A stretch of DNA of 58,633 bases from an uncultured Gammaproteobacteria bacterium. Its GTDB lineage: Bacteria; Patescibacteriota; Patescibacteriia; UBA2196; GWA2-42-15. The stretch is from assembly GCA_964573135.1 (NCBI GenBank), contig CAZNIO010000008.1, positions 1 through 58,633 on the forward strand. The letters run 5' to 3'. Below, piece after piece: positions 4,704-53,863 of the stretch (position 1 is the first letter of the stretch; the number at the start of each line of letters is the position of its first letter). The position numbers and the translations under genes are program-made. Under the pieces are notes generated by a model. The model had not been told where the DNA came from and made no database searches. It worked only from the letters and a program-made list of their open reading frames with translations.

Positions 4704-5171
4704 TTATTCTCCTTTAGCTTGCTCTTTGTATTTCTCTGGCGTAATCACGTCATTCTCATCTGCTTCAACATCACGAAATATAGCTCCCAAAACTCCATTT
4801 ACAAATCTTCCCGAAGAATCGCCCCCAAAGGTTTTAGCAATTTCAATACTCTCATTAATGGCCACTTTCGGAGGAACTTCTTTTAGAAACAATAATTCAT
4901 AAATGCCCAATCTCAAAATATTCCTATCAATCACCGTAATTTTCTCAATTGGCCATTCTGGAGCATATTTCACAATACTCTTATCAATTTCAGCCATCTG
5001 TTTAGCCACTCCACGCACTAAACTCTCAACAAATGCCACATCTTCAAGACCTGGTGCAAAATCATGCAAATTTCTCTCAATAACTTCTGTTAATTTTTGA
5101 GATCGATTATTAAAATCCCATTCAAAAAGAACCTGCATGGCAATTGTTCGAGCTAAATGACGATTAGACAT
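4704..5171 (-). CDS. nusB: Transcription antitermination factor NusB
   Basis: [49 protein letters not shown]. Confidence 0.96.
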
Positions 5172-5184
5172 AAAAATTTACTAA

Positions 5185-5412
5185 TTATTTATTCTTCTTT
5201 TCTTCTCTTTTCTTTTGCTTTCTAAACTTCTTTGGAATCCTTACTTTAATAACTTGGTTACCCTTGTATGTTCCGCAAAATAAACAAGCACGATGTGATT
5301 GCACCGGTTTCTTGCACTTTGGACAAGGCTTTAACGTCGGCGTAGTTGCTTTAATGGCCGCTCGTCTTGTTCTTTGTCTTGCCTTAGTGTGTTTTTGTGT
5401 TGGTGTAGACAT
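5185..5412 (-). CDS. rpmF: 50S ribosomal protein L32, zinc-ribbon type with a basic tail
   Basis: PTQKHTKARQRTRR, CPKC...HRACLFCGTY. Confidence 0.92.
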   Translation of the reverse strand: MSTPTQKHTKARQRTRRAAIKATTPTLKPCPKCKKPVQSHRACLFCGTYKGNQVIKVRIPKKFRKQKKREEKKNK

Positions 5413-5427
5413 AATTTAAAATAATCT

Positions 5428-6003
5428 TTATTTAATAATTTTATCAATTATCCCGTATTTTTTAGCCTCATCTGCAGTCATAAAATAATCACGGTCAGTA
5501 TCTTTCTCGATTTTAGCCAAATTCTGACCAGTATGTTTAGCTAATATCTTATTTAACTTCTCCTTAGTTTTCAAAATATGCTCTGCTCTTATCTTGACAT
5601 CTGTTGCTTGGCCTTCAGCTCCACCCATGACTTGATGCAGCATAATTTCTGAATTGGGCAAAGCAAATCTTTTCCCCTTGGCCCCGGCCGCTAAAAGTAT
5701 TGCCCCCATGCTACTCGCCATACCAATACAAATTGTCGTCACATCTGAACTAATATATTGCATTGTATCATACACCGCCATACCGGCCGTTACCGATCCC
5801 CCAGGGGAATTTATATATAATTTTATGTCCTTCTCTTTATTCTGTGATTCTAAAAATAGTAACTGAGCAATAATTGTATTTGCTAAATTATCATTAATCG
5901 GGTCGCCTAAAAATATAATTCTCTCTTTTAAAAGACGAGAATAAATATCATAGGCTCTTTCCCCATGATGACTCTTTTCAATTACTGTCGGTATTAAAAA
6001 CAT
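5428..6003 (-). CDS. clpP: ATP-dependent Clp protease proteolytic subunit
   Basis: [31 protein letters not shown] (catalytic Ser), MLHQ (His), DTDRD. Confidence 0.97.
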
Positions 6004-6097
6004 ATAGAATAACTTCTAATTTTATAATAAAAATCCCAAAATATCTTCGATTTATTCACCAACTACCACTTGCGCCTTAAACACTTTATTTTTATAC

Positions 6098-7815: not shown

Positions 7816-8814
7816 TTATACGACTTTCCAATATTCCCCTATTTTCTCTAATCTTCCTTTAACAAGAAAGCCAGCCGATTTAGTGTGACCCCCTCCCCCA
7901 AATAGCTGAGCCAGTTTTAGCACATTTGCCTCTTCTTCAATTCCCCGTAAACTCACCTTAACTTGATTTCCATCTTTTTCCTTAAGCACCATGGCCATTT
8001 TTACCCCATCCAAACTGTTAAAAAAATTAGAAATCCCATCAGTAGCATTCTCTTCACTCTTACCAATATCACTCTCAAGAACCACACTATAAGCTATATT
8101 CAGTTTATCATTTTTCTGTAATCTTGATAATACCTTGCTCCACACGCGCAAACTCTCTTCTGTCTTATCTTGATAAACTTTTTTTATAATATAATTATAC
8201 TTGCCACTCTTACCAATTAAGTCAGCCGCAATTTCTAAAGATTCCGCATTTGTGGCTTGATTGGTAAAATTAGAAGTATCCGTTAAAATTCCAAGCAGCA
8301 TCCCCGTAGCTACCTCACTTGTCATCCGAGCACCCGTTAATTTAAACAGTTTGTAAATCATGACACTTGTTGAGGAACTCTTTGGCTCAATCAAATTAAA
8401 TTCTCCATACTCTTCATTCCCCTCATGATGGTCAATCGTTACTAATTTAACTTTATCAATTTGTGTCAAAACTTTAATTGAAAAACCAGTATAACCAAGG
8501 CTTGAACAATCAATTACTATAACTAAATCAAAACTCTCTCGCAACAACTCATCTTCACTAGACACCATCCTGCAGGCATTTCGTAAAAATAAAAAATTAT
8601 CAGGTACACCATCTCTTGAAAAAGCTGTGTATCTTTTATCCCGTGAGTTCAAAAACTCCATCAAAGCTGACAGAGATCCAATGGCGTCACCATCAGGAGA
8701 TTGGTGAGTTGCGATTAATATATTTTGAGCTTGATCAATATATTCTTCAACTCGTTTATACTTATTCTTTTGGTCTATTGGTATTTGCATATCATACCAA
8801 TCTAACATCGACAT
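7816..8814 (-). CDS. nrnA: DHH/DHHA1 phosphoesterase, NrnA-like nanoRNase/pAp phosphatase
   Basis: THQSPDGDAIGS, VIDC, IDHH, GILTDT, SLRG, GGGH; exact start (8814, 8808 or 8790) uncertain. Confidence 0.85.
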   Translation of the reverse strand: MSMLDWYDMQIPIDQKNKYKRVEEYIDQAQNILIATHQSPDGDAIGSLSALMEFLNSRDKRYTAFSRDGVPDNFLFLRNACRMVSSEDELLRESFDLVIVIDCSSLGYTGFSIKVLTQIDKVKLVTIDHHEGNEEYGEFNLIEPKSSSTSVMIYKLFKLTGARMTSEVATGMLLGILTDTSNFTNQATNAESLEIAADLIGKSGKYNYIIKKVYQDKTEESLRVWSKVLSRLQKNDKLNIAYSVVLESDIGKSEENATDGISNFFNSLDGVKMAMVLKEKDGNQVKVSLRGIEEEANVLKLAQLFGGGGHTKSAGFLVKGRLEKIGEYWKVV

Positions 8815-8835: not shown

Positions 8836-10830
8836 CTACGAACGACTCTCTTCTTCTTTATAAAACTCAATAACATCTCCTTTCTCTACCCTATTTTTCC
8901 CTTCAATTTTTACACCACACTGCTGACCCTCTGCCACCTCTTTAACTTTTTCTTTACCTGCCTCAAGCGCTGTTACCTGAGCTTCACCAAGTATCTCTTC
9001 TTTTCGCATCAATCGACACACAACATCGTTGATTGCCTGACCATGTATTACCTCGCCTCCAATAATTTGTGCATCCTTTTCTGTTCTAAAAACCTCAAGC
9101 ACTTTGAGTTTACCAACTAATACTTGTATGGTTTTTCTACCAATTAACTTATCTCTCTCTTCTTTAACAAAATCAAGCAATTCATAAATAATACTATATA
9201 ATTTAATCTCTACTCCTCGAGCCACGGCCAACTTACTTGCCTCAGAAGATACTTTCACATTAAAACCAATCAAAAACGAACCTTGGCTCTTGGCCTGCTC
9301 AACATCCTTTTCTGTAATATTACCCAAACCCTGCTTAACAATAGCTACATCCACATCACCTTCAGTTATTTTTTCCAGACTCTCTTCAATGGCTTCCACT
9401 GAACCGAGTACATCAGCTTTAAGTATAATACTCATTTTTGGTTTATCTTCCTTATCTTCATCATCTCCTTGCTCTAAATTGTACACCACTTTAGTTGCTC
9501 TACCTCCGTAATCTTTAACTCCCATGCGTACAGCTTGTTTAATTTTCTTTTTATCATCAAAAGCCTCCAGCATATCTCCAACTTGTGGTACGCTCTTTAA
9601 GCCAACCAATCGCACTGGAGTTGAAGGTAAAGCTTCACGAACAGCTTCTCCCTTCCAATCTTTCATCATGCGTACCTTACTAACCAATTTCCCAACTTGC
9701 ACATAATCTCGAACTCGCAACGTTCCACTTTGTACAAGCACTGTAGCCACAGGACCTTCTCCCTTATCTACATGTGATTCAATAATGGTTCCAACTGCTC
9801 GTTCATCAGCTTTTGCCACAATATCTTCTTTATGCAAATCAGCCACTAAAAATAAAGTATCCAATAACTCTGGGATATTAGTCTTGTCTTTAGCAGATAT
9901 CTCAACACATATTGTTTTACCTCCCCAATCTTCAGGATTCAAATCAATATTAGCCAACTCGGTTTTTATCTTATCAATATTAGCATCTGGCTTATCTATC
10001 TTATTTATCGCCACAATGAACGGCAAGCCGGCTTGCCTAATATGTGAAACTGCTTCAATAGTTTGTGGCTGTACACCATCATCTGCCGCTACTACTAATA
10101 TAGCTATATCAGCGACTTGTGCACCACGTGACCTCATAGCAGAAAAAGCTTCATGCCCAGGAGTATCAATAAAAGTTAGTAATCTATCATCTTTCTTAGC
10201 TTGATAAGCACCAATATGCTGAGTAATACCACCCGCTTCCCCATCCACAATATTAGTTTCTCTAACTGCATCTAGTAATTTAGTTTTTCCATGATCCACA
10301 TGACCCATAACTACTACAACCGGTGGACGCGCACTTCCTCCTTTTTTACTTTCTTCCAAAATTTTCTGAAGCTTATCATCTTTATCTTCCCCAACCTTCT
10401 CCTCTGACAATTCAACTTTAAAACCCATGTCTTCTGTAATAATTGAAGCTGTTTCAAAATCTATATCCTGATTTAAAGAAGCCATTACTCCATTACGCAT
10501 CAACTCCATAACCAAATTAGTTACTGGAACTTCCATACGTCGAGCTAGTTCTTTAACAACAATCTTTTGAGGTATCTTAATTACTTTAAATTCCTTTTCT
10601 TCTTTTTGATCCTTATCAATAAATACTTTCTCATCTCGACTAGCTTTGGGTTTTTCATCCAAGTATTCCTCTCTAATCTTCGAGTTAGATAATTTCTCTA
10701 AAATATCACGTGCCATCTTAGAATCTACTTTTATGGCTCTTACACCAATATCAAAACCAAGTTGTGGCATAACTTCCCGCAACTTGTTTGGAGTAATTTT
10801 TAACTTTCTGGCCAACTCTGTTACATTCAT
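8836..10830 (-). CDS. infB: Translation initiation factor IF-2
   Basis: RPPVVVVMGHVDHGKT, GGITQHIGA, DTPGHEAF, NKID; N-terminal IF2_N repeats. Confidence 0.98.
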   Translation of the reverse strand: MNVTELARKLKITPNKLREVMPQLGFDIGVRAIKVDSKMARDILEKLSNSKIREEYLDEKPKASRDEKVFIDKDQKEEKEFKVIKIPQKIVVKELARRMEVPVTNLVMELMRNGVMASLNQDIDFETASIITEDMGFKVELSEEKVGEDKDDKLQKILEESKKGGSARPPVVVVMGHVDHGKTKLLDAVRETNIVDGEAGGITQHIGAYQAKKDDRLLTFIDTPGHEAFSAMRSRGAQVADIAILVVAADDGVQPQTIEAVSHIRQAGLPFIVAINKIDKPDANIDKIKTELANIDLNPEDWGGKTICVEISAKDKTNIPELLDTLFLVADLHKEDIVAKADERAVGTIIESHVDKGEGPVATVLVQSGTLRVRDYVQVGKLVSKVRMMKDWKGEAVREALPSTPVRLVGLKSVPQVGDMLEAFDDKKKIKQAVRMGVKDYGGRATKVVYNLEQGDDEDKEDKPKMSIILKADVLGSVEAIEESLEKITEGDVDVAIVKQGLGNITEKDVEQAKSQGSFLIGFNVKVSSEASKLAVARGVEIKLYSIIYELLDFVKEERDKLIGRKTIQVLVGKLKVLEVFRTEKDAQIIGGEVIHGQAINDVVCRLMRKEEILGEAQVTALEAGKEKVKEVAEGQQCGVKIEGKNRVEKGDVIEFYKEEESRS

Positions 10831-10962: not shown

Positions 10963-12096
10963 ATGGCCTTAGACACAAATCAGCAAATCAACCAGCTCAT
11001 AGCTAAGTCAAAACAAATTCTAATTGCTTCCCCTGCTAAAAATTCGGACGACAGCCTTTGCTCTTGTCTTGCTCTTTTTAAATTATTTGAAAAAATAAAT
11101 AAACCAGCTGATTTAATCACTGAAAATCCCCAAAAAAATAGGCTAGCCTTTTTGCCCCAAAGCGATAGCATTAAATCAAATATTGACTCTCTACAAAAAT
11201 TAACAATTTCTCTAGATATTAAGGATAATAAGATTAATGATTTTAGTTATGACATTACAGATGATAAGCTCAATATTTTCCTCACCCCTCAAAAAACAAA
11301 TCTAACCAAGGATGACATTTCAATTCAGCAAAGTAGCTTTAAGTATGATTTAATTATTACCATTGGTTCACAAGACTTAGAGTCTCTTGGAGGTTTGTAT
11401 CAAAAAAATACAGACTTTTTTTATTCCACTCCTATTATAAACATAGATACATCTCCAAGCAACGAACATTTTGGCCAAATCAATCTAATCGACTTGAGCG
11501 CCTCATCAACCACAGAAATTATCTTTGACCTTATCAATTCAATAAATCCAAAATTCATCGATGAAGATGTAGCTACTCATCTTCTGGCTGGTACCATTAT
11601 TAAAACAAAAAGTTTTAAAGACCCACGCACCACTCCCCGGTCACTGTCCCTCGCCGCTGATCTTATACGACTCGGGGGCAAAAGAGATTTAATTGTCAAT
11701 CATCTATATGGCAATAAAAAACTATCAACCCTAAATCTCTGGGGAAGAGTCCTGGCTCGTCTAAAACAAGATACTCTCTACAAAATGGCCTGGTCAATGA
11801 TCAGTCAAACTGATTTTGAAAGAGCCGGTGCCACTCAAAATGACCTTCAAGGTATTACCGAAGAAATTCTTCTTAATTCTCCCCAAATCGAAACTATCCT
11901 TATACTCTATGAAACTAAATCAGGTCAAATAGCCGCTGAACTGCATACTTCAAAAAACTACGATGCCCTTGAACTTACTCGCGCTTTTGGACCTTTGGGT
12001 AATACATCTAGAGCTGATTTCTACCTTGAAACCGACAAGCTCTTTGAAGCTGAGGAAATGACTGTCAATCAAATAAGAAGTAGGATAAAAATCTAG
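10963..12096 (+). CDS. DHH-fold phosphoesterase-like protein with degenerate catalytic motifs
   Basis: DHH layout recognisable (ILIASP..SDDSLCS, PIINID, NEHFGQINL, SSTTEIIFDL, VATHLLAG), but DHH reads DTS, the GxxxDT motif reads GTIIKT and there is no GGGH. Confidence 0.7.
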   Translation: MALDTNQQINQLIAKSKQILIASPAKNSDDSLCSCLALFKLFEKINKPADLITENPQKNRLAFLPQSDSIKSNIDSLQKLTISLDIKDNKINDFSYDITDDKLNIFLTPQKTNLTKDDISIQQSSFKYDLIITIGSQDLESLGGLYQKNTDFFYSTPIINIDTSPSNEHFGQINLIDLSASSTTEIIFDLINSINPKFIDEDVATHLLAGTIIKTKSFKDPRTTPRSLSLAADLIRLGGKRDLIVNHLYGNKKLSTLNLWGRVLARLKQDTLYKMAWSMISQTDFERAGATQNDLQGITEEILLNSPQIETILILYETKSGQIAAELHTSKNYDALELTRAFGPLGNTSRADFYLETDKLFEAEEMTVNQIRSRIKI

Positions 12097-12169
12097 ATTG
12101 ATCAAATCTAGATTGATTAGTAGTTGAGAATGGTATACAATATATTATATATTGACCATTTTAATTATA

Positions 12170-12198
12170 TTGTCCTTACCAAATATATATGGTAAAAT
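12170..12198 (+). promoter_or_regulatory. Promoter with an overlapping inverted repeat (putative operator), upstream of the HTH/LAGLIDADG-tRNA cassette
   Basis: TTGTCC, 17 nt, TG-n-TAAAAT; TTACCA-N8-TGGTAA (12176-12195) overlies the spacer and -10. Confidence 0.55.
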
Positions 12199-12246
12199 GA
12201 ACTTAGGAGAAATAATAATATAATTACTATCTTAAAGTTCATTTAT

Positions 12247-12921
12247 ATGGCACGCGCAAAAGACCGAGAAAAGGCTCTGTCACTTAGAAAACAGGGCATG
12301 AGTTATAGCCAAATTAAAAAAATAATTGGGGTAGGCAAAGGCACTTTAAGCAACTGGCTTAGAGATCACCCCCTCTCAAAGGAAAGAATCAGGGAGCTCG
12401 TTTACTGTAACGAACAAAGAATAGAGCGCTGCAGGGAAACAAAAAGAAAGAAAAAAGAACAACGATTGCTCAACTATTACAATGAAGAGAAAAAAAATAT
12501 ATTTCCTCTTACAAAACGAGAATTCTATTTGGCTGGACTTGTTCTATACTGGGGAGAAGGGACTAAAAGACACTTAGCTACCCTGGCTGTTACAAATACA
12601 GATCCTGCTGTAATCAAATTCTTTATTATATGGACCATCAAAGCACTGAAATTCCCCAAAGAAAAAATTAAAATGCGCTTACATCTATATACCGACATGG
12701 ATATCAAAAAAGAAACACTCTACTGGTCAAAAACACTGAATATACCCCCAAAACAATTCACCAAGCCATATATCAAGCAAAGTTCAAGTGAAAGAATAAA
12801 TTATAAAGGCAGATTTGGTCATGGAACTTGTGTAGCCCAAATAGGGAATGCGAGGACAACTGAAAAAATTTTAATGGCCCTAAAAGCCATTGCAGACAAA
12901 TATAACGAGGAGCGCCTGTAG
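12247..12921 (+). CDS. N-terminal helix-turn-helix plus single-motif LAGLIDADG-like domain protein
   Basis: HTH-like ALSLRKQGMSYSQIKKIIGVGKGTLSNWL; LAGLIDADG-like FYLAGLVLYWGEG, then LAVTNTDPAVIKFF and YWSKTLNIP; stop codon lies inside the tRNA-Ile. Confidence 0.65.
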   Translation: MARAKDREKALSLRKQGMSYSQIKKIIGVGKGTLSNWLRDHPLSKERIRELVYCNEQRIERCRETKRKKKEQRLLNYYNEEKKNIFPLTKREFYLAGLVLYWGEGTKRHLATLAVTNTDPAVIKFFIIWTIKALKFPKEKIKMRLHLYTDMDIKKETLYWSKTLNIPPKQFTKPYIKQSSSERINYKGRFGHGTCVAQIGNARTTEKILMALKAIADKYNEERL

Positions 12922-12987
12922 CTCAGGGGTTAGAGCACCTGACTTATAATCAGGTTGTCGATGGTTCAAATCCATCCAGGCGCACCA
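12912..12987 (+). tRNA. tRNA-Ile (anticodon UAU), CCA encoded
   Basis: Acceptor GCGCCTG/CAGGCGC, D stem GCTC/GAGC, anticodon arm CCTGA-CT TAT AA-TCAGG, T arm GATGG-TTCAAAT-CCATC, discriminator A plus CCA; 76 nt. Confidence 0.92.
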
Positions 12988-12988
12988 G

Positions 12989-13078
12989 GGACGCATAGCT
13001 CAGTTGGTTAGAGTGCTTGCTCGACACGCAAGAGGGTTTAAAAGGTACAGTGTACCTTTTAAACGGTTCAAATCCATT
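12989..13078 (+). pseudogene. Disrupted tRNA-Val(GAC)-like gene with a 29-nt hairpin in the variable region and no 3' acceptor strand
   Basis: GGACGCA-TA-GCTC-AGTTGGTTA-GAGT, CTTGC-TC GAC AC-GCAAG, hairpin 13036-13064, GGTTCAAATCC, then a T-run instead of TGCGTCC-CCA. Confidence 0.7.
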
Positions 13079-13089
13079 TTTTTGATATA

Positions 13090-13166
13090 GGGCGGTTAGC
13101 TCAGTTGGTTAGAGCGCGTCGTTGACATCGACGAGGTCATTGGTTCAACTCCAATATCGCCCACCA
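13090..13166 (+). tRNA. tRNA-Val (anticodon GAC), CCA encoded
   Basis: GGGCGGT/ATCGCCC acceptor, CGTCG-TT GAC AT-CGACG, ATTGG-TTCAACT-CCAAT, ACCA; 77 nt. Confidence 0.95.
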
Positions 13167-13208
13167 TCATCAAACTTAATTTATTTATTACTTAATTTAT
13201 TTGTTTCT

Positions 13209-13772
13209 ATGCCTAAACTACCAAAAATCCCATATAAACTATTAGAAAAAAACAACAAGGAAAAAAGTTATTGTATGAATTTATCAGATAAGCTCCGTAT
13301 TCTTGCAAAAACCACTGTAAGTTTTCTAGTACGAGATAATGTGGACACCGCTGAAAAAAACTTTCCAGCCATGGAAAAATTATTCAAACAAATCCAGACA
13401 AAACTCCGCCAAAATCCATATCTTTACAGCGTAACACCAATTAATTATGGACTTGAAGAATATATTGAAGCTCTACTTGTCTGGAGTTATATGAATAATA
13501 AACCAATGCCAACCATTGCTAAGCTCAAAGTTACTCCAGAACTTTACCTTGGTGCTTTGTCTGATATGACAGGCGAACTTGTCCGCTTGGCACGTAAAAA
13601 TGAACAACAAGCTAAAAGTATTCATGACTATGTAGCTCATATATATGCCCTAATTATCCCAGTCTCAATTACCAGAAACTCCAATCTCCGCCACAAACTA
13701 GAAACCATTGGTAATAATTTGAAAAAAATTGAAGGCATAATCTACGATTTGAAACTAAGGGACAAAATTTAA
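13209..13772 (+). CDS. Translin/TRAX (C3PO)-family protein (start moved to 13209 because the longer ORF overlaps tRNA-Val)
   Basis: GLEEYIEA and PELYLGALSDMTGELVRLA match the TRAX catalytic motifs (ExxE and DxxGE) as I recall them; all-helical, 187 aa. Confidence 0.82.
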   Translation: MPKLPKIPYKLLEKNNKEKSYCMNLSDKLRILAKTTVSFLVRDNVDTAEKNFPAMEKLFKQIQTKLRQNPYLYSVTPINYGLEEYIEALLVWSYMNNKPMPTIAKLKVTPELYLGALSDMTGELVRLARKNEQQAKSIHDYVAHIYALIIPVSITRNSNLRHKLETIGNNLKKIEGIIYDLKLRDKI

Positions 13773-13778
13773 TACTTA

Positions 13779-14778
13779 CTGTGAATTACGAAACTCCCAA
13801 AAGAGCTCATAATGATGTAAAATTAAGGTAGTGTATTACTAACTAAAATTCTACACCACTATGAGAGCTTTTGTACCCATGTACAATTCAATCAAAGTTG
13901 TAGTCAATTTCTTTAGTAAACAATTACACTTTGATAAGTACAAATCCAAAACAGGTCGAAAGTTAGCTTTACCAATTGAAGATATCGTATCACTTGCTAT
14001 CTTCAAGCAGAAAAACAACATTGCTACAAAACGTGCTCTTTACAACATATTGAAACCAAATTGCTCATACAAGACACTGGTAGTTAATCTGAATAGATGG
14101 TTTTTCCTGGCAGTAATTATCCTAGTCCTTTTGATGAAGTTAAATAGGAGGAATACTCATTTGGTAAAACACATTGATTCCACTGAACTGCCGGTTTGTT
14201 TATTCAAGAATGCCCATGCTCATAAGACCATGAGAGACTACGCTGAATACAGGAAGAAAGGAAATACCACATTTTATGGGCTCAAACTACACATTATTAC
14301 TGATTTGAAACAAAGATTGTTATCAATTAACTTTACTGGAGCCAAGACGGATGATCGGGCAGTGGTCATTAAAATGGCTGACGATTTAACTGGCATATTC
14401 ATGGCTGATGCAGGGTATATATCAGATAAGTTGTCACGAGAATTCTATCAGGAACATAAGCGTGTGTTACTCGCTAAGCCAAGAAGTAATATGAAAAAGA
14501 TGATGACTCAATTTGAAGAAATGCTTTATCGTACAAGGATGTTAATTGAACTAAACTTTAGAGATTTAAAATTATTCCATGGGCTAGTAACTAGCCTGCC
14601 AAGATCAGTTGGAGGATATTTAGCTAACTATATCTACTCCATACTGGCTTATCAAATTGTTTAAATTGTGAAAAAGAACTTTACTACAATTCTACCTATT
14701 AACAGACAAACTTGAGTAATCAAGGATTATTTTGGTTATCCAAGTTTATTCGTTAAATGTGAGTTTCGTAATTCACAG
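13779..14778 (+). mobile_element. IS982-family insertion sequence, about 1000 bp, complete
   Basis: Perfect 18-bp terminal inverted repeats CTGTGAATTACGAAACTC (13779-13796) and GAGTTTCGTAATTCACAG (14761-14778), flanked by a TACTTA direct repeat (13773-78, 14779-84). Equivalent reading: AC...GT ends with an ACTT duplication. Confidence 0.9.
13861..14664 (+). CDS. IS982-family DDE transposase
   Basis: HIDSTELPVC, FYGLKLHII, FMADAGYIS, RMLIELNFRDLK. Confidence 0.88.
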   Translation: MRAFVPMYNSIKVVVNFFSKQLHFDKYKSKTGRKLALPIEDIVSLAIFKQKNNIATKRALYNILKPNCSYKTLVVNLNRWFFLAVIILVLLMKLNRRNTHLVKHIDSTELPVCLFKNAHAHKTMRDYAEYRKKGNTTFYGLKLHIITDLKQRLLSINFTGAKTDDRAVVIKMADDLTGIFMADAGYISDKLSREFYQEHKRVLLAKPRSNMKKMMTQFEEMLYRTRMLIELNFRDLKLFHGLVTSLPRSVGGYLANYIYSILAYQIV

Positions 14779-14794
14779 TACTTATCTCAGCCAC

Positions 14795-14821
14795 AAAACG
14801 ACTGGTCATCCCAGTCGTTTT
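14795..14821. terminator. Bidirectional intrinsic terminator between the translin/IS side and tsaD
   Basis: AAAACGACTGG-TCATC-CCAGTCGTTTT, 11-bp stem. Confidence 0.75.
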
Positions 14822-14838
14822 TAAATTTTAAAAAATAA

Positions 14839-15852
14839 TTATTCCCCCAACCTCAAATTAGCATTTGTCTTTATTTTCTTCCAATCACTAAATTTCTTAT
14901 TCTTAATCTTGTAATACCCAGCCGCTGCAATCATCGCTGCATTATCCCCTGTCATCTTCATATCAGGCACTAATAATTTAACTTTATCTAATTTGCTACC
15001 AACCTCTTTCTTCAATGAATCCCGTAAATTCTCATTAGCCGCCACTCCCCCTCCAAGAAGTATTGTCTTCACCTTAAACTCTTGAGCCGCTTTAATAGTT
15101 TTATTTACCAAAACCTCAACACATGCTTCTTGAAAAGAAGCACACATATCTTGATTTTTTATTCTTCCCTCTCTCATCTTGTAAAGTACCGCTGTCTTAA
15201 TCCCAGAAAAACTAAAATTATAATCTCCCGAATTAATCATCGGTCTAGGCATTTCAACTTTACTTGCGTTTCCTTTCTTGGCTAGCTTAGAAATCACGGG
15301 CCCACCAGGATAGCCCAAATTCATCATCTTTGCCACCTTATCAAAAGCTTCACCCACTGCATCGTCTTGCGTTTCGCCAATTATCTTGTATTTCAAATAA
15401 CTTTCCAGTAATACTAATTGTGTGTGCCCCCCAGAAACTATCAAAGCCAAAGCAGGAAATTTTAATTTACCTAACTTTCTAGAATTACTCATCTCAGCTG
15501 AGTAAATGTGGCCCTCCAAATGGTTAACTGCCACCATTGGCTTCTCCCACGCATAACTCAAAGTTTTACCTGCCTCTACCCCTACTCGCAAACTAGTAAT
15601 TAATCCCGGTCCATTAGTTAGCGCGATATAGTCAATTTGTTTACCTTTTTTTCCTAATACTTTCTCCAAAACAGGTATCATATACTCCACCTGTTTACGG
15701 GCTGCAACTTCCGGCACAATTCCACCATATTTAGCTTGCAACTGAGATGACGATGAAATTACATCTTTAACCACCTTAAAAACACCGTTTTTAACCTCTA
15801 AAACAGCTACCGCAGTCTCATCACAGCTTGTCTCAATGCCAAGTATGCGCAT
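14839..15852 (-). CDS. tsaD: tRNA N6-adenosine threonylcarbamoyltransferase TsaD (start moved to 15852)
   Basis: MRILGIETSCDETA, GGIVPEVAAR, NHLEGH, VSGGHT, DDAVGEAFDK, GDNAAMI. Confidence 0.97.
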   Translation of the reverse strand: MRILGIETSCDETAVAVLEVKNGVFKVVKDVISSSSQLQAKYGGIVPEVAARKQVEYMIPVLEKVLGKKGKQIDYIALTNGPGLITSLRVGVEAGKTLSYAWEKPMVAVNHLEGHIYSAEMSNSRKLGKLKFPALALIVSGGHTQLVLLESYLKYKIIGETQDDAVGEAFDKVAKMMNLGYPGGPVISKLAKKGNASKVEMPRPMINSGDYNFSFSGIKTAVLYKMREGRIKNQDMCASFQEACVEVLVNKTIKAAQEFKVKTILLGGGVAANENLRDSLKKEVGSKLDKVKLLVPDMKMTGDNAAMIAAAGYYKIKNKKFSDWKKIKTNANLRLGE

Positions 15853-50907: not shown

Positions 50908-51309
50908 ATGCCACAAGAAAAAACTAACGACAAGGACAAGGACGATCCTAAAAAGGATCATCCCAAAAAAGAAAAAGAAGAAGACACGCTACTCGGATTA
51001 AAATCAGGTATGACAGTTAAGGTACACGAAAAAATAAAAGACATTGATGCCAAAGGGAAAGAAAGAACCAGAGTTCAAATTTTTGAAGGAATTATTTTGG
51101 CGGTTAAAAAAGCCAAAACTCCATCCGGCACTATTCTCGTACGCAAAACGTCACACGCCGGAGTTGGTGTAGAAAAAATATTTCCTATACACTCACCTTT
51201 AATTGATAAAATCGAAGTCATTAAATCAATCAGGTCCCGTCGTGCCAAGCTTTACTTCTTGCGTGACTACAAGAAGCGCCCGAAAACGACACGAGTCAAA
51301 AATTCATAA
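50908..51309 (+). CDS. rplS: 50S ribosomal protein L19 with a charged N-terminal extension
   Basis: GMTVKVHEKI, RVQIFEGIIL, GVGVEKIFPIHSP, RRAKLYFLR. Confidence 0.95.
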   Translation: MPQEKTNDKDKDDPKKDHPKKEKEEDTLLGLKSGMTVKVHEKIKDIDAKGKERTRVQIFEGIILAVKKAKTPSGTILVRKTSHAGVGVEKIFPIHSPLIDKIEVIKSIRSRRAKLYFLRDYKKRPKTTRVKNS

Positions 51310-53778: not shown

Positions 53779-53863
53779 TGGTGCCCAGGGCGGGACTCGA
53801 ACCCGCACTCCCGAAGGAACATGATTTTAAGTCATGCGTGTAAACCAATTCCACCACCTGGGC
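53779..53863 (-). tRNA. tRNA-Leu (anticodon UAA), CCA encoded
   Basis: Minus strand GCCCAGG/CCTGGGC acceptor, CATGA-CT TAA AA-TCATG, long variable arm, GCGGG-TTCGAGT-CCCGC, ACCA. Confidence 0.94.

Follow-up and report, generated by a model that had tools for sequence, protein, structure and literature searches.

The locus at positions 12170-14821 of the contig stretch studied here (58,633 nt, positions 1-58,633; referred to below as the window) raises the question of whether its protein-coding and tRNA genes form one unit and, if so, which of them belong to it. A sequence-only reading of the locus had proposed a tRNA-centred system, in which an endonuclease-like regulator, three tRNA genes and a translin-type RNase are combined within a single transcription unit. 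All of the features listed in that reading are indeed present, at or near the positions it gave. An assembly artefact can be excluded, because the stretch containing tRNA-Ile, a pseudo-tRNA and tRNA-Val, as well as both junctions of an insertion sequence (IS), are reproduced in contigs of four public salt-lake DNA runs. Comparison with related loci revealed that the conserved entity consists of a promoter, an open reading frame (ORF1), the gene for tRNA-Ile(UAU) and, usually, that for tRNA-Val(GAC).

Linkage of ORF1 to tRNA genes

The features of the locus, in their order along the window, are as follows.

12170-12198, + strand: promoter, with a -35 box (TTGTCC, 12170-12175), a 17-nt spacer and a TG-extended -10 box (TAAAAT, 12193-12198)
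12198-12246, + strand: 5′ leader with an inverted repeat (TGAACTT, 12198-12204; AAGTTCA, 12235-12241)
12247-12921, + strand: ORF1, 224 aa, with a helix-turn-helix (HTH), a long helix and a LAGLIDADG-like domain
12912-12987, + strand: tRNA-Ile(UAU), called by ARAGORN; Rfam score 76.8 bits
12988-13089, + strand: pseudo-tRNA-Val(GAC), without an ARAGORN call; Rfam score 26.2 bits (gathering score 29)
13090-13166, + strand: tRNA-Val(GAC), called by ARAGORN; Rfam score 67.7 bits
13209-13772, + strand: Translin/TRAX-like (C3PO-type) ORF, starting at ATG 13209 or ATG 13275; Pfam Translin, 66.6 bits
13779-14778, + strand: IS982-family element of 1000 bp, with its transposase at 13861-14664 and target site duplications at 13773-13778 and 14779-14784
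14795-14821, + strand: intrinsic terminator, with an 11-bp stem, a 5-nt loop and a T run

ORF1 overlaps the gene for tRNA-Ile(UAU), the only tRNA-Ile found in the window, by 10 nt. Nucleotides 1-10 of the tRNA provide the last three codons of ORF1 together with its TAG stop codon, which corresponds to tRNA nucleotides 8-10 (U8-A9-G10). The physical coupling of the ORF to the tRNA genes, one of the claims of the sequence-only reading, is thus borne out by a stop codon placed within tRNA-Ile. This position of the stop codon leaves no room for a promoter between the two genes and, as ORF1 is followed by neither a spacer nor a terminator, the ORF and the tRNAs are assigned to one transcript. Judging from this layout, the tRNAs must depend on the promoter of ORF1. 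None of the public RNA runs contains the region. The terminator at 14795-14821 is the sole one predicted on the + strand within 11900-15100 and the first located 3′ of the promoter, which agrees with the earlier statement that there is none before 14795.

More than 1,700 relatives of ORF1 are detectable. Most of them share 60-70% identity and have a length of exactly 224 aa, and all of the named ones originate from Patescibacteria. We compared 25 genome loci carrying an ORF1 orthologue, two of which end at the gene, with the remaining 23 extending past it. The orthologue is followed by tRNA-Ile(UAU) in each of these 23 loci, the tRNA starting from 10 nt before to approximately 70 nt after the end of the ORF, and tRNA-Val(GAC) comes after tRNA-Ile(UAU) in 18 of them, mostly directly. 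Since only about 3 of the 57 genes of the window have a tRNA gene on the same strand within 100 nt downstream, a linkage found in 23/23 loci is far beyond chance. The usual wider order in the relatives is FtsH, ORF1, tRNA-Ile(UAU), tRNA-Val(GAC), RluA, ribosomal protein L19 and further tRNAs. In the three most divergent loci (L020, L021 and L023) a terminator-like hairpin, read directly from the sequence, is located after tRNA-Ile; the minimal unit is therefore ORF1 plus tRNA-Ile(UAU). The C-termini of the proteins carry a trace of the same arrangement: of 120 close homologues, 92 have x-R/G-x as their final residues, which is what tRNA nucleotides 1-7 would encode in frame.

Rfam also produced sub-threshold matches to the "Plastid-ycf2 5′UTR" model, antisense to the tRNA genes, at 12912-12985 (- strand) of the window and at the same place in L006, L013, L018, L019 and L039. 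The match is strongest at tRNA-Ile(UAU). These hits look like a side effect of a model resembling an antisense tRNA and not like a real element.

The promoter of the window matches the consensus at 9 of 12 positions and has a TG-extended -10 box. Taken by itself, a consensus scan does not outperform chance (12 sites versus 11.1 expected). The promoter is credible because nearly all of the 25 orthologous loci have an equivalent pair of boxes, TTGTTC-17-TATAAT, equally far from the ATG, and the earlier placement of a promoter at 12170-12198 is upheld by this conservation.

The leader that follows is built on a conserved pattern. GAAC stands directly after the -10 box, GTTC is located 4 nt before the ATG, and pairing of the bases between these two anchors covers the ribosome-binding site; the 5′ arm of the repeat begins right at the -10 box and the 3′ arm covers the ribosome-binding region. 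The GAAC...GTTC-(4 nt)-ATG pattern is conserved in both bacterial and phage members of the family. The latter have the same layout with other inner bases, e.g. GAACCTCC/GGAGGTTC in L050, and in L060 the arms pair at 11 of 11 positions. The complementarity of arms belonging to the same leader exceeds that of arms taken from different sequences (permutation p ~1e-4, a value which overstates independence, the sequences being related). By analogy, we infer that this hairpin may control the translation of ORF1. As the -10 box abuts the 5′ arm, transcripts initiated at ORF1's own promoter would lack this arm and would be translatable, and transcripts reading through from upstream would be silent. 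The same logic of silencing read-through transcripts by means of the leader is used by homing endonuclease genes of phage T4 (for a review, see PMC2988022).

The ORF1 protein and its family

The ORF1 protein contains (i) an HTH (approximately residues 2-40), (ii) a long basic helix (residues 45-85) and (iii) one LAGLIDADG-like domain (approximately residues 88-224), with the motif LAGLVLYWGEGTK and a putative catalytic pair, E104 and K107. A broad family profile, which includes phage members, matches residues 104-147 of the homing endonuclease I-DmoI (E=3.7e-4), the only solved protein that it matched. In this alignment the LYWGEGxK of the family corresponds to LYVAEGDK, the second LAGLIDADG motif of I-DmoI, which we take to carry its catalytic residues E117 and K120. 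At the acidic position of the motif, 237 of 270 family proteins carry Glu or Asp; nearly all members retain the putative catalytic Glu and Lys, with no exchange observed other than Glu to Asp. The description of the ORF as an HTH plus LAGLIDADG-like protein, given in the sequence-only reading, is therefore supported by the match to I-DmoI, at the level of motif and profile.

Database models recognise little of this protein. Only weak HTH matches were obtained with Pfam, and the C-terminal domain (C-domain) is unmatched in Pfam, NCBIfam and PHROGs, in which only the N-terminal HTH is recognised. A profile of close orthologues gave chance matches to antibodies only among PDB sequences. We also obtained AlphaFold models, with a mean predicted local distance difference test score (pLDDT) of 85 for the full-length protein and, for the C-domain, a pLDDT of 87 and a predicted template modelling score of 0.81. 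The predicted structure consists of the HTH, a 40-residue helix and a C-domain whose first helix ends at the Glu of LYWGEG (E104). The elements of this domain are arranged in the order alpha, beta-beta, alpha, beta, inserted alpha, beta, alpha; the LAGLIDADG core fold is alpha-beta-beta-alpha-beta-beta-alpha. A Foldseek search of BFVD yielded weak, repeated matches (probability 0.66-0.97, template modelling score ~0.4, E 0.1-0.8) to proteins labelled as intein-containing or as homing endonucleases, and to several oversized viral proteins.

Two well-known endonucleases may be set beside the ORF1 family. With I-DmoI it has in common the LYxxEGxK motif with its acidic residue and lysine, and the beta strand and helix that come next, a likeness extending over approximately 45 residues. 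I-DmoI is an archaeal, intron-encoded, monomeric enzyme with two LAGLIDADG domains and no HTH, whereas the single domain of ORF1 carries an additional helix between strands 3 and 4 and is preceded by the N-terminal HTH and the long helix. Enzymes of the I-CreI type have one LAGLIDADG domain per chain, as does ORF1, which implies a homodimer acting on a near-palindromic site. I-CreI, however, has no detectable sequence or profile similarity to ORF1, is encoded by an intron in rRNA genes and lacks an HTH.

ORF1 is under purifying selection: its ratio of nonsynonymous to synonymous substitution rates is 0.18-0.24, versus 0.03-0.10 for ftsH.

The family as a whole is large: searching with a profile of its C-terminal domain (E up to 1e-3) yielded at least 3,653 clusters at 50% identity. 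Its members adjoin different tRNA genes. A paralogue in L004 and the members in L034, L038 and L039 precede tRNA-Gly(GCC), those in L035-L037 overlap tRNA-Gly(UCC) by 15 nt, and that in L041 ends 1 nt before tRNA-Pro(CGG). A relative with 31% identity (L040) likewise precedes tRNA-Ile(UAU). Members were also identified in viral contigs of IMG/VR (41-527 kb), where 18 of 19 have tRNA genes within 3 kb, several of them being placed inside dense tRNA arrays. Two of these viral members (L045 and L061) overlap tRNA-Val(UAC) by the same 10 nt, and another (L060) abuts tRNA-Val(GAC). Four more (L043, L044, L053 and L056) are arranged tail to tail with a tRNA gene on the opposite strand, which points to a link with the tRNA at the DNA level.

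In some of these viral contigs (L043 and L044, 3376-3449; L056, 3343-3416) the family ORF runs into the opposite-strand tRNA gene; its C-terminal residues (e.g. ...AGFEPASLE) are therefore an antisense translation of the T arm. We also considered ORF1 as an active insertion sequence or transposase. This possibility was rejected, as copies within the same genome share only approximately 27-30% identity, and every copy goes with a tRNA of its own.

The region downstream of tRNA-Ile and the neighbouring genes

The pseudo-tRNA located between tRNA-Ile and tRNA-Val retains the 5′ acceptor strand, the D arm and the GAC anticodon arm, i.e. the 5′ two-thirds of tRNA-Val. At the position of the variable loop it contains a 13-bp perfect hairpin (13036-13064), after which come a stretch resembling a T arm and a run of T. 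A 3′ acceptor strand was found neither by alignment nor by folding, and the Rfam match covers only positions 7-64 of the model. The assignment of 12988-13089 to a pseudo-tRNA-Val, made in the sequence-only reading, is thus confirmed by the sub-threshold Rfam score and the broken cloverleaf. The element probably represents a scar of recombination or repair. Two functional interpretations, a class II-like tRNA and a split tRNA using the 3′ half of tRNA-Val, were rejected, since the acceptor strands are unpaired.

Inspection of the sequences revealed tRNA fragments that precede or separate the tRNAs of the window and of L006, L013 and L039; a permissive Rfam scan of five related loci missed these fragments. 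The fragment of L006 is broken at the same variable-loop position as the pseudo-tRNA of the window. This locus contains three tRNA-Val(GAC)-like sequences in a row (5757-6083): the first is weak (36.7 bits), the second is a 5′ fragment with a GC-rich insertion of approximately 90 nt in the variable loop, and the third scores 72.6 bits.

Sequence turnover around the gene is fast and of the kind typical of endonuclease loci. Between close relatives, tRNA-Ile(UAU) and tRNA-Val(GAC) are 67-96% identical (67-88% in all but one pair), whereas other tRNAs of the same loci are mostly 97-100% identical, with one at 89.5%. Alignments between relatives, and with them the synteny, stop exactly at the end of tRNA-Ile. 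In L009 (4571-6114) two protein genes are placed between tRNA-Ile(UAU) and tRNA-Val(GAC), which are approximately 100 nt apart in its close relative L019; this is another sign that the spot just after tRNA-Ile is a rearrangement hotspot. An empty site was found in L039, where a tRNA-Ile fragment and tRNA-Ile(UAU) come immediately after ftsH and ORF1 is missing. The identity of the ORF1 proteins is nearly flat (50-80%), regardless of the distance between the hosts. In L024 (4977-5678) the orthologue is split over two frames (4977-5306 and 5307-5678) and is either a frameshifted pseudogene or the result of a sequencing error.

The ORF located after tRNA-Val in the window passes the threshold of the Pfam Translin model (66.6 bits, cutoff 25.9). 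Among solved proteins, its best match is NEQ131 (1.8e-11), the homomeric C3PO of Nanoarchaeum equitans, followed by TRAX. Two of its stretches, EEYIE and SDMTGE, align with QEYVE and GDIAGE of NEQ131, at positions that we assume to be those of the TRAX-type catalytic acidic residues (ExxE and DxxGE). Compared with Translin/TRAX proteins of the C3PO type, this ORF is bacterial, short (165-187 aa) and, in other genomes, not linked to tRNA genes. No promoter or terminator is predicted between tRNA-Val and translin in the window, and the two are probably co-transcribed there. The neighbourhood survey nevertheless did not bear out a combined system including translin: the protein is encoded in 0/25 loci with an ORF1 orthologue, and six loci with translin homologues contain neither a tRNA array nor an ORF1 relative. 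The three-part system therefore fails by the refuting condition that the sequence-only reading itself had set, namely that the two proteins seldom occur together in other genomes. In most relatives the position after the tRNAs is occupied by RluA and L19. Translin, a downstream passenger specific to this lineage, was accordingly excluded from the conserved unit.

The IS982-family element has perfect 18-bp terminal inverted repeats (CTGTGAATTACGAAACTC / GAGTTTCGTAATTCACAG) and is flanked by a 6-bp target duplication, TACTTA. Its transposase is an intact DDE protein (Pfam DDE_Tnp_1_3, 97.9 bits), for which the IS982 model of NCBIfam is the best match, at 121 bits, below the cutoff of 130. Without the element, the terminator would stand 16 nt after the stop codon of translin. 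The form lacking the IS was not seen in the contigs of the public runs. The proposal that the element is a later insertion just before the terminator holds, given a 1000-bp element with its target duplication between that stop codon and the terminator.

Several further observations concern the surroundings of the unit. Upstream of it, two DHH-family (NrnA-like) paralogues that are 29% identical (7816-8814, - strand; 10963-12096, + strand) flank the gene for IF-2 (8836-10830, - strand). A DHH gene (42% identity) is also located directly 5′ of ORF1 in L006; most other relatives have ftsH there. Two copies of a 10-bp perfect palindrome, AATCTAGATT, separated by GATCA (12090-12125), overlap the stop codon of the upstream DHH gene just 5′ of the ORF1 promoter, and this pair was not seen upstream of ORF1 at the other loci. 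The pair may form an AT-rich terminator hairpin for the DHH gene or serve as a binding site for a protein. Among the relatives, the FtsH-like ORFs of L001 (1690-4917), L013 (1720-4851), L017 (402-4913) and L025 (1491-4832) are 1043-1503 aa long, compared with approximately 600-630 aa elsewhere, which suggests the presence of inteins inside ftsH. In the window, an L19-like gene (50908-51309, + strand; its identity was judged by eye) and tRNA-Leu(UAA) (53779-53863, - strand) are situated approximately 38 kb from the ORF1 unit, whereas in the relatives both are found a few kb downstream of it. ORF1, tRNA-Ile and tRNA-Val therefore appear to have moved as one block in the lineage of the window.

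Possible roles of ORF1

Endonuclease-type genes associated with tRNA genes have been described in three settings: (i) SegB, a GIY-YIG endonuclease encoded in the tRNA cluster of phage T4, cleaves within tRNA genes and drives the co-inheritance of the flanking tRNA region (PMC2330249), (ii) an HNH gene is conserved upstream of cyanobacterial tRNA arrays (L-arrays) and is co-regulated with the tRNA operon (PMC8421152), and (iii) HNH genes are the most widespread genes in the tRNA arrays of mycobacteria and mycobacteriophages (PMC5966550). Like ORF1, these are free-standing genes located in, or just upstream of, tRNA genes. The analogy is one of arrangement only, since ORF1 combines a LAGLIDADG-like domain with an HTH; no GIY-YIG or HNH domain of Pfam was found in ORF1 or in 40 diverse members of its family. 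ORF1 differs also in being fused end-to-start with one particular tRNA, often with its stop codon inside the tRNA, in the stable pairing of its subfamilies with given tRNAs (Ile-UAU, Gly-GCC, Gly-UCC and Pro-CGG), and in residing in Patescibacteria chromosomes under purifying selection, with a cleavage activity that is putative.

The explanation that we prefer, with a confidence only slightly better than even, is that ORF1 is a free-standing gene of the homing endonuclease type, resident at tRNA genes and analogous to SegB of T4. Its product would act as a homodimer, binding the DNA of tRNA genes, and probably cutting it, where the genome or allele lacks ORF1, and repair would then copy ORF1 along with the adjoining tRNA genes. 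The tRNA fragments, including the pseudo-tRNA-Val of the window, would be scars of such breaks. The Ile(UAU) subfamily of Patescibacteria would be a long-term resident maintained by purifying selection. The IS982 element landed later, between translin and the terminator. Of the two possibilities offered by the sequence-only reading, a domesticated mobile element at a tRNA locus comes close to the comparative data, whereas a self-contained module for tRNA supply and processing that includes translin does not. The preferred explanation draws on the linkage to tRNA genes, the motif match to I-DmoI, the turnover around the gene with its tRNA fragments and empty site, the purifying selection on the protein, the conserved promoter and leader repeat, and the precedent of SegB and the HNH genes.

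Several observations weigh against a homing endonuclease. The LAGLIDADG models of Pfam match neither ORF1 nor any of the 40 diverse members. Foldseek searches of PDB with the full-length and C-domain models gave nothing significant, and a LAGLIDADG structure is absent from the 50 best matches listed; comparison of two family alignments with I-CreI (its sequence validated against PDB) by hhalign was not significant either. For the leader, RNAalifold returned a helix of only 6 pairs with little covariation, which lends weak support to the proposed hairpin. The family members of L032 and L042 have no tRNA downstream. Moreover, ORF1 and the flanking ftsH show similar synonymous divergence, and the synteny FtsH, ORF1, tRNA-Ile, tRNA-Val, RluA, L19 is widely conserved; inheritance therefore appears mostly vertical, with no sign of recent spread, and a recent horizontal transfer of ORF1, which we also considered, is unsupported in view of the ftsH-like divergence. 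Selfish endonuclease genes usually decay; a gene as well conserved as ORF1 (60-70% identity, with the length fixed at 224 aa) is at least equally compatible with a host function.

The main rival explanation starts from such a host function. ORF1 would be a domesticated regulator, i.e. a former homing endonuclease that now serves as a sequence-specific DNA-binding protein and tunes its own promoter and the level of the co-transcribed tRNAs. We regard this as a serious, though doubtful, alternative. It would account for the HTH domain and for the unusually conserved promoter and leader, including the spacer bases, with the inverted repeat as a possible operator, and it is in line with the purifying selection, the ftsH-like synonymous divergence, the conserved synteny and the fixed length of the protein. 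WhiA may be considered a model of an endonuclease domesticated as a regulator, because it combines, as ORF1 does, a LAGLIDADG-type fold and an HTH in a chromosomal, vertically inherited bacterial protein. In WhiA, however, two LAGLIDADG domains that are degenerate and lack catalytic residues are followed by a C-terminal HTH, whereas ORF1 has a single domain that keeps the acidic residue and the lysine, and an N-terminal HTH; the Pfam model of WhiA matches neither ORF1 nor the 40 diverse members. Inactive LAGLIDADG derivatives such as WhiA have lost their catalytic residues, and the retention of the putative catalytic Glu and Lys nearly everywhere, with Glu to Asp as the only change, argues against a purely regulatory role. 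Also difficult to reconcile with it are an empty site, the tRNA fragments, and viral relatives that occur in both orientations relative to the tRNA genes around them. Improbable, in our view, is a partnership at the RNA level, in which the ORF1 protein would bind the tRNA or the mRNA-tRNA precursor and aid its folding, processing or protection, as LAGLIDADG maturases do, with one paralogue for each tRNA. The obligatory co-transcription with an overlapping stop codon, the occurrence of one paralogue per tRNA species and the basic long helix would suit such a function, but L039 has tRNA-Ile(UAU) at the same site without the gene, several viral members face a tRNA on the opposite strand and hence are not co-transcribed with it, and conserved putative catalytic residues are not needed by a maturase. 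The least tenable proposal, which we consider very improbable indeed, is the original module of a regulator, three tRNA genes and a translin RNase for tRNA supply and processing. Co-transcription is likely in the window, the translin ORF is TRAX/C3PO-like, with its EEYIE and SDMTGE stretches alignable with NEQ131, and C3PO has been linked to pre-tRNA processing in fungi; against this stand the absence of translin from all 25 orthologous loci, the translin loci that have neither a tRNA array nor an ORF1 relative, the presence of RluA and L19 in its place in most relatives, and a pseudo-tRNA that is not conserved as such.

A bolder version of the homing endonuclease explanation may also be considered, although we think it unlikely. 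The family would then constitute an active, tRNA-gene-specific LAGLIDADG system common to large phages and their Patescibacteria hosts, which moves "endonuclease plus tRNA" cassettes and has been captured in Patescibacteria. The target of each subfamily would be the DNA of a single tRNA gene, and genomes lacking the cassette would be cut. The cassettes would include tRNA-Ile(UAU), the reader of the AUA codon, and expression of the captured tRNA would rest on the promoter of the endonuclease gene and on its self-limiting leader hairpin. A search of the literature on lysidine or tilS in Patescibacteria found nothing.

The combination of features at this locus had been regarded as undescribed. 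This holds only in part: endonuclease genes beside tRNA arrays have been described, as set out above, whereas our literature search brought up no account of the ORF1 family or of the way in which its members are fused, end to start, with single tRNA genes. The new elements are (i) an unannotated HTH-plus-LAGLIDADG family, (ii) its end-to-start fusion with a single tRNA gene, often with a shared stop codon, (iii) the stable pairing of its subfamilies with particular tRNAs and (iv) its presence both in Patescibacteria chromosomes and in large viral contigs.

These findings provide a genomic rule for the at least 3,653 clusters (50% identity) that are now labelled only as "helix-turn-helix protein": they adjoin a tRNA gene. 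For annotation, this means that gene callers should expect ORFs of this family to end inside a tRNA. The arrangement of an endonuclease gene with tRNA genes, known from phage T4, cyanobacteria and mycobacteria, is extended to Patescibacteria and large viral contigs, with a different catalytic fold. If the proteins cut the DNA of tRNA genes, this could explain the exchange of tRNA sets and the build-up of tRNA fragments at these loci, and active members, if there are any, would form a pool of compact, sequence-specific nucleases that may find use as tools.

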